Assembly (NCBI GenBank): GCA_965205275.1 | Contig: OZ242168.1 | Coordinates: 1,463,276-1,527,275 of the forward strand | Origin: Gammaproteobacteria bacterium | GTDB taxonomy: Bacteria > Pseudomonadota > Gammaproteobacteria > UBA4575 | DNA: 64,000 nt | Direction of reading: 5' to 3' | In this document: positions 16,984 through 33,590 of the stretch, in pieces | Layout of the letters: every line of letters starts with the position of its first letter | Position numbering within the stretch: the first letter of the stretch is position 1 | The notes under the pieces: generated by a model | What the model was told of the DNA's origin: nothing | Database searches by the model: none | What the model saw: the letters and a program-made list of their open reading frames with translations, nothing else | Position numbers and translations under genes: made by a program

Positions 16984-17451
16984 TCAGTGAGCATGCCGGT
17001 CGGCATGCGCATGGGAATGAGCCTGCTGAAGGTAGGCACCCGACTCGGGTTCAAAAGAACGCATTTCATGTGAAATGGAGAGCCCCAGGTGGCTGACCAT
17101 TTGATCCAGCACATGATCTTTCTGGTACACCAGATAGCTCTCCCCGATCTGCAAGGGCATGTGCCGGTTGCCAAGATGATAACTGGCCCGGGCCAGCAGC
17201 AACCGGTCCTCACTGCTTGCCACCGAAACCGCTTCCGCTACGGCAATGACCCGGACAATCACTTCACCGTCCTCACTTTGCAGACAGTCACCCCCTCGTA
17301 ACACCAGGCCCCGGGGTAACATCACCCCTACTTCCTCACCGCTGTCCGACCGGGTTTTGAAGCGTGCCTTTTGCCGCACCTCATACGCCAGGGTCAAGGT
17401 ATGGCTGGGATGCGATACAGGGCCTGTTATGCGCGCAGTGAGCACCAGCAT
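16984..17451 (-). CDS. ureE: Urease accessory protein UreE (nickel metallochaperone) with His-rich C-terminus
   Basis: 155 aa with the LGNRH motif and a C-terminal HSHAHADRHAH tail. Confidence 0.85.
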   Translation of the reverse strand: MLVLTARITGPVSHPSHTLTLAYEVRQKARFKTRSDSGEEVGVMLPRGLVLRGGDCLQSEDGEVIVRVIAVAEAVSVASSEDRLLLARASYHLGNRHMPLQIGESYLVYQKDHVLDQMVSHLGLSISHEMRSFEPESGAYLQQAHSHAHADRHAH

Positions 17452-17456
17452 CGGGA

Positions 17457-19160
17457 TCAGAACAAAAAGTATTTCTGTGCCATGGGAACGGTGGTGGCCG
17501 GTTCACAGGTCAGTAACTCGCCGTCGGCATGCACTTCATAGGTCTGCGGGTTGACCTCAATACGGGGTTGATACGTGTTCAGATGCAGGTCTTTTTTCCG
17601 GATCCCGCGTGTATTGCTGACCGCAACGACCGTTTTATCCAGATGCAATTGATCCTGTATACCCGCATCCAGTGCGGCTTTTGAAACAAAGGTCAGTGAG
17701 GTGGATGCGTTGGCTTTGCTTTGGGCACCAAACATATACCGGTAGTGTACAGGTTGTGGCGTAGGGATTGAGGCATTGGGATCCCCCATCGGGGCCGCAA
17801 CAATAAACCCTCCCTTGATGATCAGTGAAGGTTTCACGCCGAAAAACGGCGGCTTCCATAACACCAGGTCGGCCAGTTTGCCGACTTCAACCGATCCGAC
17901 TTCATGTGCGATGCCATGCGTAATGGCCGGGTTGATGGTGTACTTGGCAACGTAACGCCGTATCCTGAAGTTGTCGTTGCGATCACTGTCTGGTTCCAGT
18001 GCACCGCGTTGAACCTTCATTTTATGAGCCGTTTGCCAGGTCCGGGCAATGACTTCCCCGACACGCCCCATGGCCTGTGAATCCGATGCAATCATACTGA
18101 ACGCACCCAGGTCATGCAGGATGTCTTCGGCGGCAATGGTTTCCCGGCGAATGCGTGACTCGGCAAAGGCAACGTCTTCAGGAATTTTCGGGTCCAGGTG
18201 ATGACATACCATCAGCATGTCCAGATGTTCGTCAATGGTGTTCACCGTAAAAGGCCGGGTTGGATTGGTACTGGACGGCAACACGTTGGCCAGGCCGCAT
18301 ACACGAATGATATCCGGTGCATGCCCACCCCCTGCGCCTTCCGTATGATAGGTGTGTATCGTACGGTCCTTGAATGCGGCAATGGTGTCCTCAACGAAAC
18401 CGGATTCATTCAACGTATCGGTGTGAATCGCCACCTGCACGTCGTGTTGCTCAGCGACTCCCAGACAATTGTCGATGGCGGCAGGCGTTGTGCCCCAATC
18501 TTCATGCAGCTTCAGCCCCATTGCCCCGGCTTCAACCTGTTCATTCAAGGCCTCCGGCAGGCTTGCATTGCCCTTGCCCAGGAAACCCAGATTCATGGGC
18601 AGACTGTCTGCGGCTTCCAGCATACGGTGAATATTCCACGGACCCGGGGTGCAGGTGGTCGCATTGGTGCCGGTCGCAGGGCCTGTGCCTCCCCCCAGCA
18701 GGGTGGTCACCCCGGACATCAGGGCATCTTCGATCTGTTGCGGACAGATAAAGTGTATGTGTGCGTCGATCCCCCCCGCAGTCAGTATTTGTCCTTCCCC
18801 GGCAATGGCTTCGGTACCCGGACCGATCAGGATATCGACACCGGGCTGCACATCAGGATTGCCTGCTTTGCCGATGCCTGCAATCCGTCCGTCCTTGATC
18901 CCCACATCGGCTTTGGCAATTCCCCAGTAATCCACAATGAGTGCATTGGTGATGACCGTATCCACGGCTTCCCGGCAGCTCGCCTGGCTTTGCCCCATGC
19001 CATCCCGTATGACCTTGCCGCCACCGAACTTTACTTCTTCCCCGTAGATGGCAAAGTCGCTCTCAACTTCCACACGCAATTCCGTATCGGCAAGTCGCAG
19101 ACGGTCCCCGACGGTGGGGCCATACATTTCGGCATACGCCTGTCTTGAGATTTTTGCCAT
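17457..19160 (-). CDS. ureC: Urease alpha subunit
   Basis: 567 aa with the amidohydrolase active-site motifs GGIDAHIH and MVCHHLD. Confidence 0.95.
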
Positions 19161-19171
19161 GTCCGTGCAGC

Positions 19172-19519
19172 TCAGTCCCGGGGCTCGTCCAGAGGGCCCA
19201 TCACTTTTGCGTTAAATCCGTAAACGGCCCTTTTCCCGTCCAGGTCCACCAGCGTGACCGTGCGTGTTTGCCCGGGTTCAAAACGCACCGCGGTCCCTGC
19301 GGGGATATCCAGACGCTTTCCCCTGGACCGCCCGCGGTCAAATTCCAGCGCGGAGTTGGTTTCATAAAAATGATAATGTGAACCCACCTGAACCGGGCGA
19401 TCGCCGGTATTGGCCACGGTAACTGTGCAGGGGACCCGCCCGGCATTAATCTCCAGTTCCCCCTCGGCTACCATCAGTTCACCCGGTATCGGACCGGTAT
19501 CTTTCCTGTTTCCCATCAT
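19172..19519 (-). CDS. ureB: Urease beta subunit
   Basis: 115 aa containing [18 protein letters not shown]. Its start overlaps the ureA stop (ATGA). Confidence 0.85.
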
Positions 19520-19821
19520 CAGATAATCGGGTTATGCACGGTCACCAGTTTCGTGCCATCCGGGAAAGTGGCCTCGACCTGCACCTCATGTACCATTTCG
19601 GCAATCCCTTCCATGACCTCTTCCGTGCTCAGCAGGGTACGCCCGTACTCCATGCATTCGGCAACGGTTTTGCCTTCACGCGCCGCCTCCAGTATCGCGG
19701 CTGAAATATAGGCGATCGCTTCAGGATAGTTCAGCCGGAGGCCTTTTGCCTTGCGCCGTTCCGCAAGCAGGCCCGCCGTAAAAATCAAAAGCTTGTCTTT
19801 CTCGCGTGGCAGAAGTTCCAT
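19519..19821 (-). CDS. ureA: Urease gamma subunit
   Basis: 100 aa: [45 protein letters not shown]... Confidence 0.9.
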
Positions 19822-19842
19822 ATGGATTCCCGTATCCTGCTG

Positions 19843-20706
19843 TCAGGTGGCCCAGATTCTGGGCTCGCATGGCTTTTTCCCAAGCGTAACCGGTCGAATC
19901 GCTTTCCAGATCTTAATAAACCAGTCCCGTATCGCCATGGCACTGGTATCCAGACAACGGCACAACAATACGCCACCCGCAACGGTAACGCTGGTACGGC
20001 GGACGTCCTCCAGCATGTCCCGAACCAGGCCCTGTGCTTCTTCCAGTACGCGTACATCCCTGTTGACAACGGTCATCAGGCCCATGACCGGTTGTTTGCG
20101 AAGCCCCCATGCGCCATTCAATACCTCTGCACAGTTTTGCAGGGTGATGCGATCGATCAGCAAGGGTTCCGTTCCCTGCCAGATTTCAAAATGCTGCCTG
20201 AACCGGCCCGTTACAAATTTTTCATCGCATGCCGGGCGGCCAAAACTCACGATCTCCCAGCCGAAAAAACCGGCCTCGCCGGCCAAGTGTACTTTCGTGC
20301 TGGAATGTACGCTTGCGCCATCAAACAATATGGTCTCCTGCGGCAGCCATTCCAGGCAGGCATTGCCCTGGACCGTTAACTCATTGTACTGCGTTGCCAT
20401 GTGACCATTGGAGCGGTAGAACTTGTTTGCGGCAGGGGTCGTGATGAGTGCAGAAGTCGCCGCCTCACACGTCACGACGACACTGAGCGAATCCCCGCCC
20501 ACTACGCCCCCCGGCGGGTGCAGGACATATACATGACAGGTGCCGTCGGATTCCGGGTAAAACGGTCGCTGCACAGTCAGGGGGCCCTCATGACGTTGCC
20601 GGCTTACGACCGTCCTGTCATTTTTCAACGCCAGCCTCAGCTGCAAGCGGGCCTCCCAGCCCGGGGCATGCTCATATCCGGAGCATTTTTGCGCAAGCGC
20701 CGCCAT
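19843..20706 (-). CDS. ureD: Urease accessory protein UreD (UreH)
   Basis: 287 aa with UreD-like core segments. It is the first gene of the ure block. Confidence 0.8.
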   Translation of the reverse strand: MAALAQKCSGYEHAPGWEARLQLRLALKNDRTVVSRQRHEGPLTVQRPFYPESDGTCHVYVLHPPGGVVGGDSLSVVVTCEAATSALITTPAANKFYRSNGHMATQYNELTVQGNACLEWLPQETILFDGASVHSSTKVHLAGEAGFFGWEIVSFGRPACDEKFVTGRFRQHFEIWQGTEPLLIDRITLQNCAEVLNGAWGLRKQPVMGLMTVVNRDVRVLEEAQGLVRDMLEDVRRTSVTVAGGVLLCRCLDTSAMAIRDWFIKIWKAIRPVTLGKKPCEPRIWAT

Positions 20707-20707
20707 T

Positions 20708-20926
20708 CTATGCTTTCAATAGCCTTCGAAAGACCAGGCCGGCAATCCCCAATCCTGCAATCAGGGCGACATACCCCCATGCTCCCCCGACAAGATGCGG
20801 ATGAACATGCACCGGATCTAGAACTCCTGACATCCCTGTACTGCCATGTCCCGTGTGCGAAATCGCTGAACCGGGCAATAAAGCCACCATCAAAAAGATG
20901 GCTGCAAGTAATGATTGGATTCGCAT
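20708..20926 (-). CDS. Mini HupE/UreJ-like protein: signal peptide + His-rich metal-binding segment + single TM (72 aa)
   Basis: MRIQSLLAAIFLMVALLPGSAISHTGHGSTGMSGVLDPVHVHPH... resembles only the mature N-terminus of HupE/UreJ nickel permeases (AHTGHG...G..HP). It ends after one TM helix, 2 nt before ureD, and sits 23 nt after urtE. Confidence 0.45.
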   Translation of the reverse strand: MRIQSLLAAIFLMVALLPGSAISHTGHGSTGMSGVLDPVHVHPHLVGGAWGYVALIAGLGIAGLVFRRLLKA

Positions 20927-20949
20927 GATGTTGTGTCCCCCAGGTATTT

Positions 20950-21642
20950 TTACACTTTTAAATATCGATCAATGAGGTCGCCATCCAGTTCATTCATTTT
21001 TCCTGTGGCGACCATGGCGCCTTTCTCCATGATACTGAAATTGCTTGCCACTTTTTTGGCAAAAGGCAATTTTTGCTCCACCAGCAAAACGGTCAGGCCC
21101 CATTCCTGGTTGAGCCGGTTGATGATATCGCCGATTTCAGAAACAATATTGGGCTGAATGCCTTCTGTAGGTTCATCAAGGATCAGTAACTCAGGCTCAA
21201 TCGCCAGTGCCCGGCCTAACGCCAGCTGCTGCTGCTGTCCGCCCGACAGATCACCTCCTCTACGATTCAGCATTTCTTTCAGGACCGGGAATAATTCAAA
21301 AATCATGGAGGGCAGGGTTTTCTTTTTACCGGCACGGGCCGTCAGTCCTGTATGCAGATTTTCGGCTACCGTAAGTTGCGAAAATATCTCTCTCCCCTGT
21401 GGCACATAGCCAATCCCGTGTCGTGCACGCACTTCAGCCGCTTTTGCCGAAAATTCGATGCCCTTAAACCGGATTTCACCGTTCTTTATTTTCTCCAGGC
21501 CCATCACGCATTTGAGCAAGGTGGTCTTGCCCACACCGTTTCGACCCATTAGGCACATGCAGGCCCCTTTCTCAATTTCAAGGTTAACGCCCCAGAGAGT
21601 ATGACTTTCCCCGTAGTAATGATCAAGGTTATGGATCTTCAT
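20950..21642 (-). CDS. urtE: Urea ABC transporter ATP-binding protein UrtE
   Basis: Walker A GRNGVGKTTL and ABC signature LSGGQQQQLALGRAL. It is LivF-like and the last gene of the urt operon. Confidence 0.85.
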   Translation of the reverse strand: MKIHNLDHYYGESHTLWGVNLEIEKGACMCLMGRNGVGKTTLLKCVMGLEKIKNGEIRFKGIEFSAKAAEVRARHGIGYVPQGREIFSQLTVAENLHTGLTARAGKKKTLPSMIFELFPVLKEMLNRRGGDLSGGQQQQLALGRALAIEPELLILDEPTEGIQPNIVSEIGDIINRLNQEWGLTVLLVEQKLPFAKKVASNFSIMEKGAMVATGKMNELDGDLIDRYLKV

Positions 21643-21653
21643 GGTCCTTGCTG

Positions 21654-22436
21654 CTATCCGCCCAGATACACTTCAACCACTTTCGGGTCATTCTGTACAC
21701 TTTCCATCGAGCCTTCCGCCAGAACGCTTCCCTGGTGCAGGACCGTTACACGGTTTGCCAGGGATCGTACAAATTCCATATCATGCTCGACCACCACCAC
21801 GGAGTGTTTCCGGGCAAGCCGGATCAGTAACTCGGAGGTATGTTCGGTTTCCTGCCGGGTCATACCGGCTACCGGCTCATCCACCAGCAAAAGCTTTGGA
21901 TTCTGCATAAGCAGCATGCCTATTTCCAGCCATTGCTTCTGCCCGTGAGACAACTCTCCGGCATCACGATGTATCTTTTCCTGCAGCACAATGGTTTCCA
22001 GAACGTCGTGTATCCTGTCATCATCTTCACCGGACAATCTGAAAAACAGGTTTTCGAATACCTTGCGGCGGCCTTCCAGGGCCAGCTTCAGGTTATCGTA
22101 TACCGTGTGATTTTCAAACACCGTGGGCTTTTGAAACTTTCGGCCAATGCCGAGGTTTGCAATTTCCGCTTCACTGAGTGAAGTCAGGTCCGTCATGTCA
22201 TCGAAGATGACGCGACCTTCATCCGGGCGGGTTTTACCCGTGATGATGTCCATCATCGTGGTTTTCCCCGCACCGTTCGGGCCGATGATGCTGCGCAATT
22301 CATTCTTGTTTACATACAAACTCAGATTATCAATGGCCCTGAAACCGTCAAAACTGACCGACACGCCATCCAGATACAGAATGCTTTCATCCGGAACATG
22401 TATGGCCGGGTTCTCGATAACGTTCAGATTACTCAT
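21654..22436 (-). CDS. urtD: Urea ABC transporter ATP-binding protein UrtD
   Basis: Walker A GPNGAGKTT and signature LSHGQKQWLEIGMLL; LivG-like. The start was moved to the ATG at 22436 (MSNLNVIEN). The ORF-table N-terminal extension is non-coding-like. Confidence 0.85.
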   Translation of the reverse strand: MSNLNVIENPAIHVPDESILYLDGVSVSFDGFRAIDNLSLYVNKNELRSIIGPNGAGKTTMMDIITGKTRPDEGRVIFDDMTDLTSLSEAEIANLGIGRKFQKPTVFENHTVYDNLKLALEGRRKVFENLFFRLSGEDDDRIHDVLETIVLQEKIHRDAGELSHGQKQWLEIGMLLMQNPKLLLVDEPVAGMTRQETEHTSELLIRLARKHSVVVVEHDMEFVRSLANRVTVLHQGSVLAEGSMESVQNDPKVVEVYLGG

Positions 22437-23577
22437 TTTTTGCTGCCTCTTTGGGTATTGCAGTCCTTGCGGGGAAGTTAAGCATTCCCGGGATTTTTTG
22501 GATCGCACCGGCGATGCCCTGTGGTAAAAATAATGTAACCCCGACAAATAACCCCCCCAGGATAAACAACCACACTTCCAGGGCCGCGGCTGTAAAATAG
22601 GTTTTGGCGAAATTGACGGCCACGGCGCCAAGGGCTGCGCCATAAAGTGTTCCGCGCCCGCCCATGGCTACCCAGATCACCATTTCAATCGAATGAACCG
22701 GAGAAAATTCCCCGGGATTGATAATGCCGACCTGCGGCACATACAAGGCCCCCGCAATGCCCGCCAGCATGGCCGCCACGACAAATACAAACAGTTTGTA
22801 ATATTCATCGCGATACCCCAAAGCCCGGACCCGGCCTTCCGAATCCCGGATCGCCTTGACCAGGCTGCCGAGACGCGACTGCACGATGAACCGGCAAATG
22901 AGATACCCCAGCAGGGTCGCAAGCGCTGAGCATACAAACAGGAAAATCCGGGTTTCATCGGACCGCAGGTCAAAACCCAGAATATCCTTGAAGTCCGTTA
23001 ATCCGTTATTGCCCCCGAAGCCGAAGTTATTTCTGAAAAATGCCAGCATCAGCGCATACGTCAGCGCCTGCGTGATGATGGAAAGGTATACGCCGGTAAC
23101 GCGCGAGCGAAACGCCAGCCACCCGAACACAAAAGCCAGCAGCCCCGGCACGAACAGCACCATGATGGATGCGAACCAGAACTGGTCAACTCCGTGCCAG
23201 AACCACGGCAACTCCTTATAGTCCAGAAAGACCATAAAATCCGGCAACACCGGATGACCGTACACGCCGCGGTCGCCGATCTGGCGCATCAGGTACATGC
23301 CCATCACGTAGCCACCCAGACCAAAAAATGCACCATGGCCCAGACTCAGGATACCCAGATAGCCCCAGACCAGGTCCAGTGAAATGGCCAGCAAGGCATA
23401 CGTCAGGTACTTGCCGATCAGGGTCACGGCATAGGTAGTCACGTGAAACGGGGAAGACTCGGGAACCGCCAGATTACAGACGGGCACCAGTATCATTAAT
23501 GCCAGCAGCAGGATGACGAAGTACTGGCCACCCCTGTCGGTTTCCAGCAGCCTGAAGATGAACGGTTTGTATTTCAT
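22429..23577 (-). CDS. urtC: Urea ABC transporter permease UrtC
   Basis: LivM-type permease. The start MKYKPFIF at 23577 overlaps the urtB stop (ATGA). Confidence 0.85.
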   Translation of the reverse strand: MKYKPFIFRLLETDRGGQYFVILLLALMILVPVCNLAVPESSPFHVTTYAVTLIGKYLTYALLAISLDLVWGYLGILSLGHGAFFGLGGYVMGMYLMRQIGDRGVYGHPVLPDFMVFLDYKELPWFWHGVDQFWFASIMVLFVPGLLAFVFGWLAFRSRVTGVYLSIITQALTYALMLAFFRNNFGFGGNNGLTDFKDILGFDLRSDETRIFLFVCSALATLLGYLICRFIVQSRLGSLVKAIRDSEGRVRALGYRDEYYKLFVFVVAAMLAGIAGALYVPQVGIINPGEFSPVHSIEMVIWVAMGGRGTLYGAALGAVAVNFAKTYFTAAALEVWLFILGGLFVGVTLFLPQGIAGAIQKIPGMLNFPARTAIPKEAAKNE

Positions 23578-25220
23578 CAGCCGTTTTCCGCAGCACGGCC
23601 CTTGAGCGCAAACATGCCCCGGGGGTATTTCTGTATGAACAGGATGATAAAAATCAGCACGAGAATTTTTGCAAAGACGGCACCCGTTGCAGGCTCCATG
23701 AACTTGTTGGCAATGCCCAGGATCATTGCGCCAAAAAAGGTGCCCCACAGGTTTCCGACGCCCCCGAACACTACGACCATAAATGAATCTACAATGTAGG
23801 CTTGGCCAAGATTGGGACCGACATTGGTAAGCTGGCTCAATGCCACGCCACCAATTCCTGCGATACCCGAACCCAGACCGAACGTGAGCGAGTCCACCCA
23901 GTGGGTACGTATGCCCATCGCTTTGGCCATGTTCCGGTTTTGAGTCACTGCACGCATTTGCAGCCCGAATGAGGTCTTCTTTAACAGCCACAGCAATCCG
24001 AACAAAACCAGTAATGCGAATACGACAATGTACATTCTGTTGTAGGTCAGCGATAAGGCCGGATTGAACTCAAAAGACCCGCTCATCCATTGCGGAGTGA
24101 TCACCGAACGGTTAAGCGGCGAAAATACGGACCGCACGGACTGCTGCAGAACCAGACTTAATCCGAACGTGGCCAGCAATGTCTCCAGCGGGCGGCCATA
24201 CAAAAAACGAATGATGCCACGCTCTATTCCCATGCCGATCAGGCCGGTCACGATGAAGGTGGCCGGAATCGCAACAAACAGGGAGTATTCAATGGAGTTC
24301 GGCATGAGTTGCTGCACAACGAACGTGGTATAGGCGCCCAGCATCAGCATTTCGCCATGTGCCATGTTAATGACGCCCATCACACCAAAAGTAATTGCCA
24401 GCCCCACGGCCGCCAGCAACAAAACCGAACCCAGGCTTAAGCCAAAGAATATATTTTCAATGTGCTTGTAAAAACCGGTTTTCAAACGGGTCGCCTGCAG
24501 CGCAGAGTCTACGGCGGGCAGCAACCGGTGGTCGGCACTTTGATTGCCGGTATAGGTTGTTTTCAATTCTTCAAGAAGCGTTCGTACTTCGGGATACAGG
24601 GATCCGGCCAATTCATGAATGGCCGCCAACTGTATCTCAGGGTCCTTTGACCGGGCATCGGATACCGCAATGCAAACCCCCATCAGCGCCTTGACTTCCG
24701 AATCCGTCTCCCGGGTGATCGCATTGCGCAGCAGCACTGCCGCAGACGGACTCAGGTTTTTAAGCATATTCCGTACGGCGCGCAGGCGTGTACTTTTTTC
24801 TTCGCTGTAGAGAGTGAGCGTTGCCAGCTTTTCGTTCAGCAACCCTCTTAACTTGTTATTGATGCCGACTTTTCTGTATTTTTTCCTGAGCTCTTTTTTG
24901 CTTTTTGTGTCCAGCCGCTTTGCAGTCAACGGATCAAGTATTTCATAGTTCCCTGGGGTTGTTTCCGAAAGCAAAACAATATTTTTATTTTTTTTATGAT
25001 AATAAATATTGCCCTCCAGGATCTGGCTTAATATCGGTACCGCCTGTGAGCTTCCCGATTCTGCAATATTGAGGATGGCGGTTGTTTTATCCGTAAACTT
25101 TTTTGAAGAAAGCAGCCTGAAGCTGCTTTGCAGAGGGTTGTCTGATCCGGTGTATTCTTCTGCATACAGGCTGTTCAGGAATAATGAACCGAGAATTGTC
25201 AGGACCAGCAAGCACTTCAT
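23577..25220 (-). CDS. urtB: Urea ABC transporter permease UrtB with long N-terminal periplasmic extension
   Basis: 547 aa: signal peptide, then an approximately 240-aa periplasmic domain, then a LivH-type permease core. Confidence 0.8.
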   Translation of the reverse strand: MKCLLVLTILGSLFLNSLYAEEYTGSDNPLQSSFRLLSSKKFTDKTTAILNIAESGSSQAVPILSQILEGNIYYHKKNKNIVLLSETTPGNYEILDPLTAKRLDTKSKKELRKKYRKVGINNKLRGLLNEKLATLTLYSEEKSTRLRAVRNMLKNLSPSAAVLLRNAITRETDSEVKALMGVCIAVSDARSKDPEIQLAAIHELAGSLYPEVRTLLEELKTTYTGNQSADHRLLPAVDSALQATRLKTGFYKHIENIFFGLSLGSVLLLAAVGLAITFGVMGVINMAHGEMLMLGAYTTFVVQQLMPNSIEYSLFVAIPATFIVTGLIGMGIERGIIRFLYGRPLETLLATFGLSLVLQQSVRSVFSPLNRSVITPQWMSGSFEFNPALSLTYNRMYIVVFALLVLFGLLWLLKKTSFGLQMRAVTQNRNMAKAMGIRTHWVDSLTFGLGSGIAGIGGVALSQLTNVGPNLGQAYIVDSFMVVVFGGVGNLWGTFFGAMILGIANKFMEPATGAVFAKILVLIFIILFIQKYPRGMFALKGRAAENG

Positions 25221-25335
25221 GGTGGATTGGCTTTACAGGGGATGCCAAGAAGCTGACCACCCTGCGGATTCAGGGTGGTCAGCCGTACCTACAAGGTTTG
25301 TTACTGAAGGCAACGGTTTAATGATGACCGGACAA

Positions 25336-26631
25336 TCAGAAACTTTGTCCTGAACATTTTCCGGTCTCGGTATTGAAGTTGCCGCAGTTTACCGGATCGG
25401 TCCAGTTTGCAACGATGACTTTGCTTTCCGGCAGCCAGTCTGTCCAGGCATCACCTTTCACTTCGCCATCCGTAGACCAGACAATTTCAAACTGCCCGTC
25501 ATCCTGAATTTCACCAATCAGCACCGGCTTAGACAAATGATGGTTGGTGTTCATAACGGCCATACCGCCGGTAAGGTTGGGCGCCTCGATCCCGTACAGG
25601 GCCGGTCGCACTGCATCCACTTCAGTGGTGCCTGCTTTTTCGACCGCGGCCGCCCACATCTTGAAACCAATGTATGTGGCTTCCATCGGGTCATTGGTCA
25701 CGCGGGCCTCGTCCTTGATGAAGGCATGCCATGACTCAATAAACTTGTCATTCCCCTCTGACTCGGCACTCATGAAGTAATTCCATGCCGCTAGGTGACC
25801 AACCAGAGGTCCGGTATCAATTCCGGACAATTCTTCTTCACCAACAGAGAACGCCACGACGGGGATGTTTTCGGCAGATAATCCCTGGTTTCCAAGCTCC
25901 TTGTAAAAAGGCACATTGGCATCCCCGTTAATCGTGGATACTACGGCTGTTTTCTTTCCTGCTGAACCAAACACCTTGATATCCGAAACGATGGTCTGCC
26001 AGTCGGAATGGCCGAATGGCGTGTAGTTGATCATGATGTCTTCTTCGGCCACCCCTTTTTGCTTGAGGTAAGACTCAAGAATCTTGTTGGTGGTACGCGG
26101 ATACACATAGTCGGTACCGGCCAATACCCATCGTGTTGCACCCACCTCATTCATCAGGTAGTCCACGGCCGGAATCGCTTGCTGATTAGGGGCCGCACCG
26201 GTGTAGAAAACGTTCCTGGAAGACTCCTCACCCTCGTACTGAACCGGGTAAAAAAGCAGACCGTTCAGTTCTTCAACTACGGGTAGCACCGATTTGCGTG
26301 ATACCGACGTCCAGCATCCGAAGATGACATCGACTTTATGAACTTCAATGAGTTCACGCATTTTTTCCGCAAACAGCGGCCAGTCCGAGGCCGGGTCGAC
26401 TACAACGGCTTCCAGTTCTTTTCCGAGCAGACCGCCTGCCTTGTTTTGCTCCTCTACCATCATCAGGACGGTATCCTTAAGCGTGGTCTCGCTGATGGCC
26501 ATGGTGCCGGAAAGAGAATGCAGGACACCAACCTTGATCTTGTCAGCAGAGTAGCCCAGCTGAGGCAACAACAATAAGCCTAGCAGTGCCAGGGAAGGCT
26601 TTATTCCCCAATCTTTAAATTTCATTTCCAT
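25336..26631 (-). CDS. urtA: Urea ABC transporter substrate-binding protein UrtA
   Basis: Signal peptide, then KIKVGVLHSLSGTMAISETTLKD..., typical of UrtA in the Leu/Ile/Val-binding family. Confidence 0.85.
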   Translation of the reverse strand: MEMKFKDWGIKPSLALLGLLLLPQLGYSADKIKVGVLHSLSGTMAISETTLKDTVLMMVEEQNKAGGLLGKELEAVVVDPASDWPLFAEKMRELIEVHKVDVIFGCWTSVSRKSVLPVVEELNGLLFYPVQYEGEESSRNVFYTGAAPNQQAIPAVDYLMNEVGATRWVLAGTDYVYPRTTNKILESYLKQKGVAEEDIMINYTPFGHSDWQTIVSDIKVFGSAGKKTAVVSTINGDANVPFYKELGNQGLSAENIPVVAFSVGEEELSGIDTGPLVGHLAAWNYFMSAESEGNDKFIESWHAFIKDEARVTNDPMEATYIGFKMWAAAVEKAGTTEVDAVRPALYGIEAPNLTGGMAVMNTNHHLSKPVLIGEIQDDGQFEIVWSTDGEVKGDAWTDWLPESKVIVANWTDPVNCGNFNTETGKCSGQSF

Positions 26632-27069
26632 TAACTCCTGAAATTTTCATTTGTATAAAAAATATCCGATCACACTGAACACATTCTTGAAATGGGGAAG
26701 CCATGGGAAACCGCCTCATCCAAAAAGCGCAAGCGCACTAGCTACAACGCACTAAGCATGCCATTGAGAAATTTCAGTTTATTCCTCTTTTATAATCAAT
26801 AAGATAGCGGAGCCTTGTGTTGCCTGCGCAGACAAATGAACATCTATGGTCCTCCGTGCGCACTACGGCCATGCGTGAACGCACCGTTAAAGAGCATACA
26901 TGTAATCCAATAAAACCTGTGGGATACCGGGGGTGAGGTCTGGCTGGGTACCAAAACCAGAGCACTGCTGTGAGTAATGACTCGGAGGTCGAAAGTAACC
27001 GTCTAGCAAGACTGTCAAAATGTTGCCGATGTCTCCGGTACGTACCCGGAATCTGAGATCTTGCGCCCT

Positions 27070-28074
27070 TCAGTCCGGGCGGCGGGCAAAGACACTGTAA
27101 TAGTTGCATGAAGCAAAAAAACGGCCGCTCTCCATGGCCTCGCGCTGCGTGTCGAGCCAGGCATCGACATCGGCTGCTGGCACCAGGCCCGCTTGTGCGA
27201 TCAACGGTGCGTAGGTTTCGGCCATGCTGCGGAAATAGCTCCCCTGTCCGATTTCCGAAACCACATCGGCGTCGGCCTCAATGAGGTCGAGACCGGCGGA
27301 TGCCAGCAGCCGGGGCAGGTGCCGCATGACTACGGGATTATTGAAGGCCGCCCGTGCCAACGCCCAGTCCATGCCCCGACCCGCTTCGGCGTCGACGAAC
27401 GCGTAGGTGAGCGAGGCGTAGTCGCCATCGAACACCACCAGCGCGCCCCCCGGCTTCAGCACCCGACGCGCCTCCTCCAGCACGGCAGCCGGATCGCTGA
27501 CGTGACTGATCAGCGTATGCGCGATCACCGCGTCAAAGCGTGCGGACTCGGACTGAAGTGCGTGCGCGTCACCAACTTCGAACGTGAGCCTGTCCGCGAG
27601 CTTCTCCTGTACCGCCAGCCGCTGCGCGGTCTCGACGAACGCTGGGCTCTGGTCAACGCCTGTGACATGAACGCCCGCACCTTTCTTGCGTGCGAGCGAG
27701 CGTGCCACGACGCCAGTTCCGGAGCCAATTTCAAGCACGCGCGCGTTCGCGGGCAGTTCAAGCCTGGAAGAATAGTTTTCAAACAGGCGGGTGAACACCC
27801 GATCCTTGCCGCGGCTCTCGAGCCGGTCAACCAGGCGGTCGATCATGGCCGGCTGGAGCTCGTTGACAAATCGATGCGGATCACGCGCCGAAGGGACGTC
27901 ATCCTCGGTACGCCGTGCCCAGTCCTGGGCATCGCGCTTGGTGCGAAAGGTCTTGCTGGCCGTCGGCCGGCCATGTTTTCGAATGATCGCTTTCCAGGTG
28001 TTCGAGGGGGTCTTCGTGATTGTCGCCATGCATCGCTTCCGGTACAGGTGTACCGAAAGTGTACCGCACGACAC
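27070..28074 (-). CDS. Chimeric ORF: class I SAM-dependent methyltransferase preceded in frame by a phage-type integrase N-terminal remnant
   Basis: The C-terminal 260 aa carry a SAM-binding motif (VLEIGSGTGVVARSLA...VTGVDQSP...LKPGGALVVFD). The first ~45 aa (MATITKTPSNTWKAIIRKHGRPTASKTFRTKRDAQDWARRTEDDV) match the conserved N-terminus of tyrosine recombinases. GC is markedly higher than in flanking DNA. Confidence 0.6.
   Translation of the reverse strand: MSCGTLSVHLYRKRCMATITKTPSNTWKAIIRKHGRPTASKTFRTKRDAQDWARRTEDDVPSARDPHRFVNELQPAMIDRLVDRLESRGKDRVFTRLFENYSSRLELPANARVLEIGSGTGVVARSLARKKGAGVHVTGVDQSPAFVETAQRLAVQEKLADRLTFEVGDAHALQSESARFDAVIAHTLISHVSDPAAVLEEARRVLKPGGALVVFDGDYASLTYAFVDAEAGRGMDWALARAAFNNPVVMRHLPRLLASAGLDLIEADADVVSEIGQGSYFRSMAETYAPLIAQAGLVPAADVDAWLDTQREAMESGRFFASCNYYSVFARRPD
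27895..28029 (-). pseudogene. Tyrosine recombinase (integrase) N-terminal remnant, truncated after about 45 codons
   Basis: MATITKTPSNTWKAIIRKHGRPTASKTFRTKRDAQDWARRTEDDV runs directly into methyltransferase sequence. No catalytic R-H-R-Y domain is present anywhere nearby. Confidence 0.5.
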
Positions 28075-28472
28075 CGGGGTTCAAAACAGGAGATATCGAT
28101 CGTATGGATCAATATGGTGGCAGGGGCGGAACTTTTTCCGCTATTCAGTCCCGAAGGCGAAACCCTGTGGGTGCCAGATTGGAGTTACGAGAACCTGATG
28201 TCAGCAACGAGCGCATTGAGCGACGTTGCCCTGTATTGCCGCAGATCTTTATCGGGATCCGAGAAGTAGGTGGTGATGTCACCTGATTCCTATTGAACCG
28301 TCTTACCGGCCTCGGGAATCAGGGCAATGTTCTCGAAAGTTTGCCCGATCAGGGCTGACAGGAGCAGACATGCCGCAAAAGTGAATTTGTGCCTGCGCAT
28401 CAATCCGTCTCCTCATGTTCCGTACGGCTTTGTCTCGTCCCCCGTAGTGTCATCTCAACAGATCAGCGATGA

Positions 28473-29831
28473 TCAGGAAACCAAGGATACCGTGGCACTC
28501 AGGCTTCTGTTTTCCTCCATCTCGTCGTTGCGCAGCAGCTGAATGGATACCGTGGCGCTCGTACTTCCTTTCGTGATTGTGGTCTCGACCGGTTGGTCGA
28601 TGTAATCCACGCCAGCCACGGCCGGGTTATCGCCGCTTCCCGGAACGAGACGCACCTCAACGCGAATGTCTTTCTGTGCTGCCTCGGGAAGTACAACTTC
28701 CAGCTGGACCGTATTGCCGCTGTTAACGGCACTCTGAAGGAACCGAACTTCCGCTCTATTGACGAGACTGGCCACAGTTGTGTGGGTGGCAACCCTAATC
28801 TGCCCAACGCCGTCGATCGGACGCCACAATTCCGAATCGTTCGGCGCGGAACCACCTGCCGTCACGCCCAGGCCTTCCCACCGCGGAGTCTTGGATGGAC
28901 CTCCGATTGGCATTGTAAACCGGACGAGGACCGACGCCGTCCCCTCAGCATTACTTGGCCGGTCATAGCCAGCGGTGATGTTGAGCCATGGATGCGGTCG
29001 CCATCCGACATCCAGTCGCGCGCCCTCGATCCAGCTCCCGGACCCATCCTCCGACTGCCAGCGATAGCCCGTCGTGTTCACGCGAACAGTCGACGTGATA
29101 TCGACTCTCGTCGCCAACTCCATACCCTCGAGCGCCCGCTCTTCGTATCCGAGGCGGGTTAGTCGCCCGCCCGTAGTCGGGCTGAAGTACCGGAACGAGC
29201 TGCTCCCCCACTTGCCGGAATAGTCGAACCCGGGCACCAGAACCGCATGCTGGTGTTCAGCGTTGACCAAGTGCAGCATGGAGATCCCAAGGACATCGGC
29301 GTCCAATCCCTCTGAGACCCGGAATCGGTATACCAAGCCCTGACGCACATCGTTGTGGAGCGAGCCATGCGCATCCCACCAACGGGTGATGCCCTGCTGA
29401 AGAAAGAGTGCAGAGCTCGATGCCCTTTCCCCGGACACTGGCTCACCGCCGACAAGCGGTATCACCAAATCAAGATCGCCTTGCAGACCGGTTCTGCCTG
29501 AGGATCTCGAATACGCCAGATTCCCCACAATCTGAAAATGCTGGCCAAAGGCCCTCTTCCCGCGCTCATCTGCCAGATCTATCCCCTGATCGAGCACAAA
29601 ATTCAGACCACGTTCAAACAGGCAGTGCGCACCCTCCGAGACGGTTTCGTTGAGCACCGCACCACACCCCCTCACCTGAGTCAGGGCCGCGGTCCATATC
29701 CGATTCTCCGACTCTGCTTGTGCGGTTGAGATGATGGTCAGAGGTGCCGCCATGAACACGGTGGCAATGAGGAACAAACCATTCCTCGTGAGGTAATGCA
29801 TCATGACACGAATCCCCCGACTTCGACCCAC
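28473..29831 (-). CDS. Secreted/outer-membrane protein with C-terminal Calx-beta domain (possible inverse-autotransporter-like N-terminal beta region)
   Basis: Signal peptide MMHYLTRNGLFLIATVFMAAPLTIISTAQA. The beta-rich body has alternating hydrophobic residues. The C-terminus has a Calx-beta-like segment (VAGVDYIDQPVETTITKGSTSATVSIQLLRNDEMEENRSLSATVSL). It lies in the high-GC island. Confidence 0.45.
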   Translation of the reverse strand: MGRSRGIRVMMHYLTRNGLFLIATVFMAAPLTIISTAQAESENRIWTAALTQVRGCGAVLNETVSEGAHCLFERGLNFVLDQGIDLADERGKRAFGQHFQIVGNLAYSRSSGRTGLQGDLDLVIPLVGGEPVSGERASSSALFLQQGITRWWDAHGSLHNDVRQGLVYRFRVSEGLDADVLGISMLHLVNAEHQHAVLVPGFDYSGKWGSSSFRYFSPTTGGRLTRLGYEERALEGMELATRVDITSTVRVNTTGYRWQSEDGSGSWIEGARLDVGWRPHPWLNITAGYDRPSNAEGTASVLVRFTMPIGGPSKTPRWEGLGVTAGGSAPNDSELWRPIDGVGQIRVATHTTVASLVNRAEVRFLQSAVNSGNTVQLEVVLPEAAQKDIRVEVRLVPGSGDNPAVAGVDYIDQPVETTITKGSTSATVSIQLLRNDEMEENRSLSATVSLVS

Positions 29832-30265
29832 GTCTTGAACGCTACCCTACTTAAATAAAGGCGTTTATATACTTGGCACCACCGCCTTAGACACCCATAC
29901 TCTTTTCCTATGGGTAGCCTGCATCTCTGCGGGCTCCCGGAAATACCAGAAGAAATGCCGTGGCTCATTACGTTATGTGTCTCATTAAATTGGTCGTACA
30001 TTGCCTCGTGCAACGGAAGGAGCCGCTCTTGCGTTCTATTGAAGTGTTGGCGTTCCTGCATCGCAGCGGAACCACTATCCACCAGTAGATTGCGAACTTG
30101 GGGTAGTGGTCGCGGGACCGGGCCTTGTTCAAGTTTCTGATATTCAACCCCAGTAATGGGCTCGCCATGGCGAGCACAGGATAGAAAGTCGACCCACCAC
30201 AAAATCTTGTTGAGTTTTGTCACGCCATAGGTGAGGTTTTCCCTGCACCGGCTGACGATATGCAA
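29801..30265 (-). CDS. Panacea-domain (SocA/PanA antitoxin-like, DUF4065) protein, possibly N-terminally truncated
   Basis: GVTKLNKILWWVDFLSCARHGEPITGVEYQKLEQGPVPRPL matches the Panacea core (T-KL-KLLYY...G-PIT...Y-KL--GPVP). It has only a TTG start, a short N-terminus and no adjacent toxin ORF. Confidence 0.4.
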   Translation of the reverse strand: MHIVSRCRENLTYGVTKLNKILWWVDFLSCARHGEPITGVEYQKLEQGPVPRPLPQVRNLLVDSGSAAMQERQHFNRTQERLLPLHEAMYDQFNETHNVMSHGISSGISGSPQRCRLPIGKEYGCLRRWCQVYKRLYLSRVAFKTWVEVGGFVS

Positions 30266-30467
30266 AATTGCTCCGCAAGGCGTGCCTTTGCAGCTATCGC
30301 ATCGAAGTGGAACGTACTTGGATTTCGCTTTGATATCGAATTCCCTTTCGTTATGACATCCTCCTGCAAAAGGAAGTGTCTCCCTTCAGTTAGTCACTTG
30401 TAGGTTAGGCGTTTCCCTGCAACGCCCGCGGTCTACATCATCATCCGCTCTTTCATCATCAACACTG

Positions 30468-30990
30468 AGCACTGACCGATTGTCTGTAACGGAAATTGAA
30501 CTCGCTCAGGCATCGCTTCAGATGTTTGCTTAGACAATGCTGGTAAACGCGCTTCATCCATCACCAAGGCGTCTCCGCATGGAGCTGCTTCATAAGGATA
30601 GGATTCAAGGTTTCCGCATTGGCTTCTGGAACATGTGTAAACCGAACGTTCCCGCCACGTTTTACTAAGCTTAGCACGGCTTCCTTGTGGGCGTAACCCC
30701 TGGCGTTCCGCGGCTCTTCGTACTTCTTCCCGATGAACGTGGAGGGATCTGCCCCGCACGCATGGCTGGATTCGAATACCGTGCCGACCTTGACTGTGAA
30801 TTCCTTCTTGCACTCCTTGCAACGTCACAGATCGATTCGATTCCGTTTGCCTTTGAACTCGTAGGCACTGCCGATGACTCCACACTTCGGGCATACCGAA
30901 CCCTGTGACCACAGGATGCTTGAGGGTAAACCGTACCTGATTTCACTGGCAAGTGAATGTAACAGGTTCCTCAGCCGTGTAGTGATTGGT
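30468..30990 (-). mobile_element. IS1595-family transposase remnant (pseudogene: zinc-ribbon N-terminus, stop codon, internal deletions, C-terminal ...CLSEFNFRYRQ motif)
   Basis: Reading the minus strand across frames gives ...ILWSQGSVCPKCGVIGSAYEFKGKRNRIDL* then RCKECKKEFTVKVGTVFESSH...FIGKKYEEPRNARGYAHKEAVLSLVKRGGNVRFTHVPEANAETLNPILMKQLHAETPW*. It ends with ...HLKRCLSEFNFRYRQ. These match the conserved IS1595 zinc-ribbon, DDE-start and C-terminal blocks, but the HTH and most of the DDE domain are missing. Confidence 0.55.
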
Positions 30991-31419
30991 TCCTGTAACA
31001 ATGAACGTGAGTGTTACGTTGCCGGTGTAGCCATTATCGCACGTGAACGTGATGTAGATTGATTCCGCATAACTCTGATAGCAGCACATTACCCCTGCAT
31101 TAATAGGGTCGATTTCGTAATCGAAAATATTCCACTGGGCGCCCGCCGGTTCCAGTGTTATGCGCATGTCGGTCTCCCGGGCTTGCTGGTTCTGCAGCAT
31201 GACCCGTATGCCCGTTAGCCCGTTCTCCTGCACCGTCCTGGTGCTGCGGGCGGAAGGCGTGATCACTACCTCGGGTGCGGCCGCGCCGCCGCTGCCACCA
31301 CCTCCGCCACCGCAAGACGATAACCCAACCGATCCGACCACGACCGCGAGAATCAAACATGCCATCAGTGCAAAACTGCTTCGTCTCATCATTTCATTCC
31401 CTTCGTTCGAGTGTGCCAT
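30943..31419 (-). CDS. Hypothetical lipoprotein (signal peptide with lipobox LSSC, Gly-rich linker)
   Basis: MMRRSSFALMACLILAVVVGSVGLSSCGGGGGGSGG..., then a Cys-containing beta-rich domain. It lies next to tRNA-Phe inside the island. Confidence 0.45.
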   Translation of the reverse strand: MAHSNEGNEMMRRSSFALMACLILAVVVGSVGLSSCGGGGGGSGGAAAPEVVITPSARSTRTVQENGLTGIRVMLQNQQARETDMRITLEPAGAQWNIFDYEIDPINAGVMCCYQSYAESIYITFTCDNGYTGNVTLTFIVTGTNHYTAEEPVTFTCQ

Positions 31420-31498
31420 TGAATTTTTAGGTATTCTTGGAAATGTAAAAGAAGTGTGCTTCCTGAGACATAGCTTACAGCAAATACCGGAGACAGTT

Positions 31499-31574
31499 TG
31501 GTGGCCAGGGGCGGAATCGAACCACCGACACGAGGATTTTCAGTCCACTGCTCTACCGACTGAGCTACCTGGCC
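31499..31574 (-). tRNA. tRNA-Phe (GAA)
   Basis: The reverse complement reads GGCCAGGTAGCTCAGTCGGTAGAGCAGTGGACTGAAAATCC(A)CGTGTCGGTGGTTCGATTCCGCCCCTGGCCACCA. It has a cloverleaf with a CT-GAA-AA anticodon loop, GTTCGATTC T-arm and an encoded CCA end. Confidence 0.9.
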
Positions 31575-31660: not shown

Positions 31661-31936
31661 CTATTCGCTGCCCGGATCAACAAATTCCTGGGGTTTATCA
31701 GACCCTTCTCCAAAAAAGAATTTTTCCATTTCCTCTTCCAGAAATTTGCGTGCCTTGGGATCAACAGGGGTCAGCCTGTACTCATTCATCAGCATGGTTT
31801 GATGATTCACCCATTGCTGCCACCCTTCCTTGGAAACATTTTCGTAAATTTTTTGCCCGAGTTCACCGGGATAAGGCATATATTCTAGACCTTCGGCTTC
31901 TTTATTAAGCTTCACACACTGAACCATGCGCGTCAT
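31661..31936 (-). CDS. yggX: Fe(II)-trafficking protein YggX (oxidative damage protectant)
   Basis: 91 aa: [52 protein letters not shown]. It pairs with mutY. Confidence 0.85.
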
Positions 31937-32996
31937 GGGAGTTTTCCTTTGTACGTAGTGTTATTTGCTGCAAGGCCTTGCGTACCGGAGCCGCCAGACC
32001 GATCTTTTCATCAGGATCTTTATACCAAACCCCGGCGGCATCTTCCATTACACCAATGGGTTTACTGTCCACATGCACCAGCGTCGGGTGCATGTGCAGT
32101 CGAAAATGTGAAAAAGTATGCGTGATCACAGGTAATGCCTTCATTTGAAAAATATCTGTCTTGCAGGTCTTGACAAGCCACCTTTGCAAACCCGCTTCAT
32201 CCGCAAATTCGGGAAAACTGTACAACCCTCCCCAGATGCCCATGGGTGGGCGTTTTTCGAGCCACACGGCATCCTCGTTATTCTGTACCAGCGCGACATG
32301 CACCTCGCGCCGGGGTAAGTTGCGAGAGGGTCTGGGGGCCGGCAGTTCGTGCTGGCGCCGTTGCCCGAACGCCATGCAACCTGCTTGAACGGGGCACAGC
32401 AGACAGCCGGGACGAGTGCGGGTACACAGGGTTGCCCCCATATCCATCATGGCCTGCGTGTAGTCAGCAATGTCATGTTCCGGCAGCAATGACTCTGCGT
32501 GTGCCCAGAGCTGCATCTCAACCTTGCGTTCACCCGGCCAGCCTTCCACTGCAAAATACCGGGCAAGCACACGTTTTACGTTACCGTCCAGGATGGCATG
32601 CCGTTGGCGAAAACCCAGTGCCAGGATGGCGGCAGCGGTGGAGCGACCGATACCGGGCAAGGCGGTCATCCCATCCATGTCTTCCGGAAACTTCCCCCGG
32701 TGCTGTTCGCATAACTGCTGTGCGGCCTTGTGTACATTGCGTGCGCGTGCGTAATACCCCAGACCGGTCCAGCAATGCAGCACTTCGTCAATTTCTGCGC
32801 CAGCAAGTTCCTGCACACTCGAAAAGCGCTGCATGAACTTTTCATAGTACGGAATCACGGTGTCCACACGTGTCTGCTGCAACATAATTTCCGATATCCA
32901 GATTCTGTAAGGATCACGCTTGCGTTGCCAAGGCAGGTCTTTGCGACCATGATGATCAAACCAGGCCAGAACCTGCTCACTGAACGTACGGCTCAT
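31905..32996 (-). CDS. mutY: A/G-specific adenine DNA glycosylase MutY
   Basis: HhH-GPD domain, a 4Fe-4S cysteine cluster (C-x6-C-x2-C-x5-C) and a C-terminal NUDIX-like domain. The N-terminus reads [12 protein letters not shown]. Confidence 0.9.
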
Positions 32997-33068: not shown

Positions 33069-33590
33069 TCATGGCCCCTCGCGTTCCCATGTACCCGATT
33101 TTCCACCGGATTTTCTGACCAGCCCGGTAGCCTGTAAAGTCATGCCACGGTCGATGGCCTTGCACATATCATAGATCGTCAACAATGCAATCTGCACGGC
33201 AGTAAGCGCTTCCATTTCCACACCGGTTTGCCCAAGCGTTTCCACTGTGGCCTTGCAGTATACGGCCGGCGGGGTCTCTTCGATATCAAACTGCACCTCT
33301 ATAGAAGTGCACGGTATGGGATGACATAAAGGGATCAAATCAGAGGTCTTTTTGGCTCCTGTAATACCGGCAATCCGTGCGATACCCAGCACGTCACCCT
33401 TTTTATGGCCACCGCTTTGAATGCGTTGCAGGGTTTCTGCCTGCATGCATATCCGCCCGTCGGCAACGGCTATACGGCGGGTAACGGGCTTTTCGCCGAT
33501 ATTGACCATGTGGGCTTCACCTGCAGGATTAAAATGCGTAAGTTTATTCACACCGTGGATTCCATATTGCCGGGACAGTAATGGTACCAT
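33069..33590 (-). CDS. moaC: Cyclic pyranopterin monophosphate synthase MoaC
   Basis: [25 protein letters not shown]... is the MoaC core. The true start may be the GTG at 33551. Confidence 0.85.

Follow-up and report, generated by a model that had tools for sequence, protein, structure and literature searches.

The subject of this analysis is a 64,000-nucleotide stretch of contig OZ242168.1 (here called the window), from an uncultured marine-type gammaproteobacterium whose genome is about 2.1 Mb in size, and within it the interval that runs exactly from the 3' end of a tRNA-Phe gene to the start of urtA. We found that this interval most probably (at a probability of roughly 0.8) holds the remnants of two mobile elements that were inserted successively into the tRNA gene and that now stand in tandem, as degraded integrative elements, at its 3' end. 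On the minus strand, which carries all features described below unless stated otherwise, the order is moaC (33069-33590), mutY (31905-32996), tRNA-Phe (31499-31574), the variable segment, urtA (25336-26631), and then the other urt and urease genes; since the tRNA gene lies on the minus strand, the variable DNA is on its 3' side. The putative integration target, tRNA-Phe (GAA; ARAGORN; Rfam tRNA, 68 bits), is intact, and the variable DNA begins at 31498, the first base beyond its 3' end. An initial annotation had described a single decayed island at this place. Eroded mobile DNA does stand at the tRNA-Phe 3' end, but as two modules in tandem. The proximal and putatively younger one, module A (28132-31498; 3,367 bp), extends from the regenerated tRNA gene to a displaced copy of the tRNA 3' end, and the distal one, module B (about 26653-28114), consists of an integrase stub on the side of that copy, a methyltransferase gene, and a noncoding tail. 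The tandem reading follows from the order of the displaced copy and the stub, together with the breakpoints seen in relatives. Overall, the data support horizontally acquired, eroded, mobile-element-derived DNA, and neither module is now self-mobile.

The displaced tRNA-Phe 3' fragment (a pseudo-attachment, or pseudo-att, site) lies at 28115-28131 and reads TTCCGCCCCTG-CCACCA, compared with TTCCGCCCCTGGCCACCA in the tRNA. It matches the tRNA 3' end at 17 of 18 positions, with one base missing, and is in direct orientation relative to the tRNA gene. Searches of the region for the last 16 to 23 nucleotides (nt) of tRNA-Phe that allowed mismatches only found nothing, because the copy has a one-base gap, and gapped local alignment revealed it. 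Its alignment score of 29 was reached anywhere in the region, on either strand, by only 3 of 2,000 shuffled sequences. Orthologous degenerate copies are present in L161 (CGGTTCCGCCCCT-GCCACCA), a relative 98.1% identical to the window, and in L165 (GTACGATTCCACACCCGGCCACCA; 20 of 24 positions), a relative about 87% identical, so that the length of the fragment varies by genome (17, about 20, and 24 nt). On the tRNA strand, the window reads GTTCCGCCCCTGCCACCA (28132-28115) at the shared breakpoint, and the tRNA itself ends in ...ATTCCGCCCCTGGCCACCA. Upstream of the fragment, the window, L161, and L165 are unrelated; downstream, they align across the approximately 85 bp that lead to the integrase ATG. 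Module A ends at this fragment, which is also where the integrase gene of module B once adjoined the tRNA, and the segment therefore divides into these two modules. At the distal border (26653-27069), gapped alignment returned only chance-level matches of 8 to 13 nt, in agreement with the initial annotation, which had found no direct repeat there. Its suggestion of a degenerate repeat near that border thus found no match, and the gapped copy lies inside the region instead.

Comparison with relatives, of which five were informative, places the variable DNA at 26653-31498, with homology stopping at the tRNA-Phe 3' end (31499) and restarting just upstream of urtA. One of them, L002, is a 2.14-Mb gammaproteobacterial metagenome-assembled genome at about 75% nucleotide identity with the same mutY, tRNA-Phe ... 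urtA order; its homology to the window ends at 31499 and restarts at 26652, with 6.9 kb of unrelated genes between, and module B is absent. The tRNA-Phe sequence is 100% identical in L002 and L165. L161 is collinear with window positions 17066 to 28132, after which 420 bp of unrelated AT-rich sequence continue to the contig end. L165 is collinear from 37572 to 31499, departs from the window for 3.85 kb that encode a molybdopterin oxidoreductase, an rve fragment, and OsmC, and is collinear again from 28125 through the methyltransferase gene to 27037. L169, which comes from the same sample as L165 and is 98% identical to it, shares this slot content and has a further 6.4 kb, including a full-length IS1595 and N6_Mtase. 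The window and L161 thus separate exactly at the edge of the fragment, and the alignment of the window with L165 restarts inside it, at 28125; presence of the segment is variable among L002, L161, L165, and L169, with breakpoints at the attachment (att) sites. Alignment against relatives had been proposed at the outset as a way to find the empty site. It located the breaks in homology, and no empty site appeared. Ancestral core DNA, shared by close relatives at the same locus, had been named as the contrary case; this does not hold for 28132-31498, where even the 98% strain L161 already diverges, but module B is shared at the locus with relatives to about 87% identity.

These comparisons bear on the simplest alternative, namely, that one island decayed in place at tRNA-Phe and that the internal 17-mer resembles the tRNA by chance or has no bearing. 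Such an account has in its favor that all the mobile-element remnants stand in one contiguous variable block from tRNA-Phe to urtA and that just one integrase remnant is present. Nevertheless, we consider it very unlikely. The integrase stub is 3.4 kb from the tRNA gene but only about 85 bp from the internal fragment, the fragment is kept at the orthologous place in three genomes and is rare among shuffled sequences, and the two sides of it differ in history, module B being shared at 87 to 98% identity and module A being unrelated in the same genomes. Still less credible, to the point of being hardly tenable, is that there was no island at all, only an ancestral, fast-evolving intergenic or accessory region shaped by insertion sequence (IS) activity and local deletions. 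The segment does contain an IS1595 remnant, L165 and L169 have IS1595 and IS3 copies as well as an IS-associated deletion of urtABCD, and the segment shows no intact integrase, no distal repeat, and an ordinary overall guanine-plus-cytosine (GC) content. However, integration by a tyrosine recombinase leaves, as its signature, a duplicated tRNA 3' end with an integrase start behind it (PMC4383910), the breakpoints fall at the tRNA end and at the fragment, and methyltransferase homologues (77 to 80% identity) are found at unrelated loci elsewhere, GC-rich relative to every host examined.

We then considered the coding content of module B, which is common to the window, L161, L165, and L169. The open reading frame (ORF) 27070-28074 encodes 334 amino acids (aa), or 319 aa when counted from the ATG at 28029, where it begins MATITKTPSNTWKAIIRKHGRPTASKTFRTKRDAQDWARRTEDD. 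Its first 44 to 45 codons (27895-28029) match the arm-binding N-terminus of a tyrosine site-specific integrase, with a sequence that begins MATITKTPSNTWKAIIRK...; we refer to this part as int'. The integrase N-terminal fragment of the initial annotation is therefore real, as its first 45 codons are 82% identical to residues 1 to 45 of a 439-aa fusion protein in L165, whose own N-terminal 164 aa match Pfam Int_N (31.4 bits) and the PHROG_1 integrase family (81.8 bits) and are 32 to 49% identical to annotated site-specific integrases on plasmids. Its assignment to a single island does not stand, since it belongs to the distal, older module, which is shared at the locus to about 87% identity and so is not strain-specific. 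The integrase start codon lies about 85 bp past the pseudo-att site in the same orientation; in a Proteus homologue, the integrase lies about 105 bp after tRNA-Met, also in the same orientation. Both L165 and L169 carry a longer integrase fragment of 165 codons, as a 439-aa int(1-165)::methyltransferase ORF.

The remainder of the ORF (27070-27894) corresponds to a complete class I S-adenosylmethionine (SAM)-dependent methyltransferase of about 273 aa (Pfam Methyltransf_31, _11, and _25; E of about 1e-24), which occupies residues 62 to 334, approximately, of the 334-aa ORF; homologues of 273 to 284 aa cover that span, and the SAM-binding motif LEIGSGTG places it in class I. No NCBIfam equivalog reached its cutoff, the best being CpaM (80 bits against a cutoff of 180). 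The only PADLOC match, to mad2, was rejected as evidence of a defense system, as it covers only the generic SAM-binding core. The family is tightly conserved and lacks a curated name: the best 120 matches are all at least 58% identical, many of them from Proteobacteria metagenome-assembled genomes, and share the invariant block DPHRF..L.P...RLESRGKDRVFTRLFENYSSRLELP (homologues P0003-P0120). In the window and L161, the integrase/methyltransferase junction aligns as TEDD|VPSARDPHRF, and the 439-aa and 319-aa forms have an identical junction on the methyltransferase side. The native N-terminus of the enzyme is MNKPVDDVSSVRDPHRF in P0003, compared with ...RPGRPVGGVSSARDPHRF in the fusion. The gene, with a GC content of 63.8%, has no start codon of its own. 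The DPHRF-N-L-P motif, invariant across the family, precedes the first internal Met (codon 61 of the 319-aa form), and the translations show no in-frame ATG, GTG, or TTG between this motif and the integrase ATG. Therefore, judging from the reading frame, the methyltransferase must be translated from the old integrase ATG at 28029.

The initial annotation had described the element as eroded, and this is true of the module A remnants and of the integrase stub, but it overlooked this full-length methyltransferase gene. Its ratio of nonsynonymous to synonymous substitution rates (dN/dS) is 0.10 between the window and L165 (mutY, 0.16), which indicates purifying selection. For the first 44 codons of the integrase-derived leader, dN/dS is about 0.17 between lineages (10 synonymous versus 7 nonsynonymous changes; P = 0.002). 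Between two close relatives, amino acid differences number 8 of 165 in the leader and 2 of 274 in the methyltransferase (P = 0.007), suggesting that the leader is under weaker constraint than the enzyme. Because the frame was kept through two deletions, the leader has a dN/dS of about 0.17, the methyltransferase lacks its own start, and the int'::methyltransferase fusion is present in at least five assemblies, one might propose that the arm-type DNA-binding N-terminus of the integrase was co-opted as a functional module of the methyltransferase (for example, as a DNA or arm-site tether) or, more plainly, as an indispensable promoter, ribosome-binding site, and start. We regard this proposal as quite unlikely. 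The faster amino acid change of the leader counts against a co-opted functional domain, as does the loss of 120 of the 165 leader codons in one lineage without apparent harm.

The history of the methyltransferase would be consistent with a horizontally moving gene: the homologues at unrelated loci in other small genomes have a GC content of 60 to 63% in hosts of 48 to 58%. Among known plasmids, the only matches were of about 55 to 90 bp in the methyltransferase gene, to Azospirillum and Pseudoroseomonas plasmids, and known phages gave nothing. In another genome, L163 (4594-6820), a methyltransferase homologue stands near an ERG4/ERG24-type reductase and a short-chain dehydrogenase/reductase, about 10 kb from an integrase. 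Antisense to the methyltransferase gene and the integrase stub runs a 358-aa ORF (27193-28269, plus strand) without family hits, which is most likely a shadow ORF arising from the 64% GC content and was discarded. The noncoding tail of module B (26653-27069; GC, 47.7%) has a distal border bracketed to 26653-27037 and includes an ORF without a family hit (26774-27109). A scan for promoters and terminators gave counts equal to those of shuffled sequences.

Based on these observations, we propose the following history. An element with a tyrosine integrase would have entered the 3' end (T-arm/acceptor) of tRNA-Phe, placing int about 85 bp downstream in the same orientation. The genome comparison shows that a deletion then removed the catalytic domain of the integrase and joined codon 160, approximately, to about codon 3 of the downstream methyltransferase gene; the cut falls just before the catalytic domain, and the product is the 439-aa fusion that L165 and L169 retain. 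It likewise shows another deletion, of exactly 120 codons and again in frame, which left 44 integrase codons in the lineage of the window and L161. The displaced fragment suggests that at least one later element entered the same tRNA gene, each restoring the tRNA 3' end, so that the old 3' end (the pseudo-att site at 28115-28131) and module B were pushed away from it. The slot between the tRNA gene and the pseudo-att site would have turned over since, as it holds different DNA in the window, L161, and L165. Module B would thus be the older insertion and module A the current occupant of the slot. Finally, the occupant itself has decayed: it has no integrase and contains an IS1595 pseudogene, half a Panacea domain, and the stump of a secreted-protein gene, and apart from the lipoprotein ORF and the gene for a small inverse autotransporter, nothing in it is still apparently intact.

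Several observations weigh against this history. Module A has neither an integrase nor an integrase remnant, so that its entry by site-specific recombination is deduced indirectly. There is no displaced fragment at the distal end of module B, whose border is only bracketed (26653-27037), the L161 slot is known from 420 bp alone because its contig ends there, and GC content over the whole segment is unremarkable. An empty site, with tRNA-Phe next to urtA, was not found in the genomes compared; among 80 UrtA loci, only that of L002 has tRNA-Phe within 10 kb. A metagenome scan with MutY detected no close relatives (best match, 69 to 70% identical), and distant mutY-tRNA-Phe loci were uninformative on integrases. 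Look-ups of the exact proteins UrtA, MoaC, the autotransporter, the lipoprotein, P0002, and P0121 returned no record, and neither approach led to the same strain. Moreover, the fragments of the window and L161 lack the same base although the slots differ in content, which argues that at least some replacement came after the displacement, through recombination between att copies or through allelic exchange.

This last point leads to a possible, if rather unlikely, alternative, in which the two modules are the same but the slot was exchanged by homologous recombination, either between arms (tRNA-Phe/mutY on one side and int'::methyltransferase/urt on the other) or between att copies, with no repeated de novo integration. 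The shared gap in fragments next to different slots, within flanks that are 98% identical, would fit such an exchange, as would the lack of an integrase in module A, and L169 differs from L165 by IS and methylase insertions inside the slot rather than at att sites. However, the window and L161 break exactly at the fragment edge, and the alignment with L165 resumes at 28125, neither of which is an arbitrary position within a long identical flank. In addition, the fragment differs in length in each genome, as expected of different crossover points of different elements. Breakpoints at the fragment edge and differing fragment lengths (17, about 20, and 24 nt) would thus fit site-specific events better, and we retain successive insertion as the preferred explanation.

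Module A has no similarity to the matching stretch in L161 (98%), L165 and L169 (about 87%), or L002 (about 75%), and neither family searches nor frame translations revealed an integrase-like ORF or fragment in it. Next to the tRNA gene lies the lipoprotein ORF (30943-31419; 158 aa), in whose translation a signal peptide and an LSSC lipobox can be read, together with a Gly-rich linker. It has no significant Pfam or NCBIfam family, and the exact protein is not on record; the lipoprotein may be truncated, as the ORF runs at its 3' end into the beginning of the IS1595 remnant. Within this gene, a second string resembling the tRNA 3' end, CCGCCGCT-GCCACCA (31286-31300, plus strand), is inverted and coincides with a poly-Gly coding run; it was judged a chance match of GC-rich codons and rejected as an att copy.

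The IS1595-family transposase remnant (30459-31001) is also as first described, with internal deletion: its single frame contains two in-frame stops and is missing two internal pieces. It matches Zn_ribbon_IS1595 above the cutoff (29.4 bits), NCBIfam IS1595 (E = 4e-6), and DDE_Tnp_IS1595 just under the cutoff (25.3 bits), the DDE domain being partial and in two stretches. About 115 residues are missing, of which about 55 are from the helix-turn-helix (HTH) region and about 60 from the central DDE region. The HTH-region gap was seen directly when the remnant was aligned, with gaps, to the complete IS1595 transposase of L169 (324 aa), of which residues 98 to 157 are absent and the alignment stops near residue 210; the second gap, in the DDE region, is suggested by the match of the remnant's C-terminal piece to the end of the IS1595 models. 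Without the complete DDE domain of the family, this copy is a pseudogene. Next, the ORF at 29801-30298 carries, at 29801-30265, a fragment of the SocA/Panacea domain (Pfam SocA_Panacea, 38.4 bits; residues 18 to 75 against model positions 1 to 55 of 113) and matches phrog_1281 (E = 5e-6), and its end overlaps the autotransporter gene. It is an orphan, as the initial annotation had it: it lies between the IS remnant and the autotransporter gene with no toxin gene adjoining, and PADLOC did not detect it. The ORF is thus a remnant and not part of a working toxin-antitoxin pair.

At the distal end of module A, next to the att junction, a short gene fragment (28185-28400) was recognized by frame translation. 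It has a signal-peptide-like start, MRRHKFTFAACLLLSALIG..., followed by an in-frame stop and then ...YFSDPDKDLRQYRATS..., and is probably the stump of a secreted protein that was truncated near the junction. Its peptide ...YFSDPDKDLRQYRATSLN..., which we take to be similar to secreted adhesin-type repeats, found no support in Pfam, where the fragment had no hit.

The largest gene of module A (28473-29831) was initially annotated as a Calx-beta outer-membrane protein, which is correct and can be refined to a small, apparently intact inverse autotransporter (type Ve). The ORF encodes 452 aa, and the annotated form of 443 aa implies a start near 29804; a protein on a 2.106 Mb contig (P0121) is 100% identical to it. 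The predicted layout begins with N-terminal helices, continues with an intimin/invasin-like beta-barrel, and closes with one Calx-beta domain at the C-terminus. Pfam IAT_beta was matched by 24 of 29 members of the family, and the window protein itself scores 22.9 bits for Calx-beta and falls below the Pfam IAT_beta threshold. A profile of the family sequences had no hits in the PDB, where only a fold search gave matches: the best matches of the AlphaFold2 (AF2) model (pLDDT, 82) were the beta-domains of intimin (4e1s) and invasin (4e1t), with E values of 1e-7 to 1e-8, and the next were Calx-beta structures, on the C-terminal domain. With an IAT barrel in the family and in the model and a passenger at the C-terminus, the protein is predicted to be an inverse autotransporter.

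This mini inverse autotransporter family (about 443 aa, with one Calx-beta passenger) has 213 homologues, most of them without a precomputed Pfam domain. One homologue, in L164 (10001-11332), lies within a region flanked by two integrase genes and has IS21 and HTH_32 fragments nearby; because it stands between integrase genes, genes of this kind may commonly travel on mobile DNA. A cassette of lipoprotein and autotransporter genes was considered and rejected, as the small ORF upstream of the L164 homologue is unrelated to the lipoprotein of the window.

The composition of the segment is atypical only in some respects, and the description of it as high in GC, given in the initial annotation, is true only of the methyltransferase gene (64%) and part of the autotransporter gene. 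The GC content of the whole segment is 55.6%, against 54.1% for the window, and about 20% of the same-size windows elsewhere in the 64 kb are equally high. The narrower stretch of 27.1-29.8 kb does have a mean of 59.6%, exceeding every same-size window elsewhere (maximum, 59.2%), but this reflects only two peaks, at 27.15-27.9 kb (63 to 67%) and 28.8-29.4 kb (62 to 64%), with a trough of 52 to 56% between them. The corresponding slot of L165 has a GC content of 41.7%. The k-mer analysis suggested in the initial annotation was more distinctive: the strand-symmetrized tetranucleotide signature of the segment is the farthest from the window background of all same-size windows, and that of module A alone is likewise more atypical than all windows of its size.

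Genomic islands in tRNA genes have been well described. A regenerated tRNA gene with a displaced 3' fragment of the tRNA gene DNA (tDNA) is a marker of island ends, and tandem arrays at one tRNA gene have been documented (PMC4383910). The segment is like the tRNA and transfer-messenger RNA (tmRNA) islands of the Islander collection in its location at a tRNA 3' end, in the direct orientation of the 3' tDNA fragment at an island end, in the integrase start right after the tDNA 3' end, and in its two serial units. In contrast, neither unit passes the Islander filters. Of the two, module A has no integrase and module B has only codons 1 to 44 of one, so that neither has an integrase of its own; a tRNA repeat at the far end is present for module A (28115-28131) and absent for module B, and the modules are only 3.4 and about 1.5 kb long. 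Nor do they form a tandem array in the Islander sense, as the two units share one fragment and one integrase stub.

In Escherichia coli, the GI-pheV islands have an integrase next to pheV and imperfect attR repeats of 19 to 23 bp, and islands without attR are shorter (PMC11537424). The segment resembles GI-pheV/GI-pheU (intP4) in its tRNA-Phe target, the integrase directly 3' of the tRNA gene, the imperfect repeats, and the modular, variable content (PMC11537424); one G before CACCA is missing from the attR common in E. coli (TTCGATTCCGAGTCCGG-CACCA), as it is from the fragment in the window (PMC11537424). Unlike in those islands, the integrase N-terminus of the window type matches Int_N and, weakly, Arm-DNA-bind_4, with no P4-type arm-binding domain among the Pfam matches (intP4 itself was not compared directly), virulence modules are absent, and the state is far more degraded. 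The autotransporter is like intimin and invasin in that its family matches IAT_beta and its predicted barrel is closest to their beta-domains, but the window protein is much smaller, and a single Calx-beta domain replaces the long passenger array of immunoglobulin-like and lectin domains. Since the family profile had no hits in the PDB, the relationship is remote. As for the PanA/SocA antitoxins, the N-terminal half of the Panacea domain is recognizable, but the C-terminal half and an adjacent toxin ORF are absent.

Some further observations concern the surroundings of the segment in relatives. The tRNA-Phe slot of L002 (3042-9981) contains sterol-type genes, namely, a GPP34/cytochrome P450 fusion, a 3-beta-hydroxysteroid dehydrogenase-like epimerase, and a steroid 5-alpha-reductase; sterol-type cargo, as in L002 and L163, is unusual for small marine gammaproteobacterial genomes. 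In the sister lineage of L165 and L169, the 3' flank of the methyltransferase gene runs straight into the urtD/urtE boundary (window equivalents 27037 and 21677; L165, 11352-12532; L169, 11352-11420), with IS3-type fragments there in L165, and urtABCD and the equivalent of window positions 26653-27036 are deleted, while urtE and the urease genes are kept. In the window, Rfam 5_ureB_sRNA matches with 99.3 bits (gathering score, 40) at 18725-19011 on the plus strand, antisense to the ORF of the urease alpha subunit (17457-19160, minus strand); this match may just reflect conservation of the urease coding sequence under an overlapping antisense-RNA family and not a real small RNA.

Taken together, the segment is a degraded member of the tandem tRNA-integrated islands, an ordinary and well-understood kind of feature that opens no new biological question; its sole mildly unusual point is the survival of a methyltransferase by means of the start of a dead integrase. 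For annotation, the 319/334-aa ORF is a chimera that should not be named an integrase, and the 452-aa protein is a miniature inverse autotransporter rather than a generic Calx-beta protein. The segment offers a small, clean example of how a tRNA hotspot ages, in which elements stack, integrases are lost, and old att copies stay as markers, and it identifies the tRNA-Phe slot as a place for strain-specific genes in a poorly sampled gammaproteobacterial lineage.

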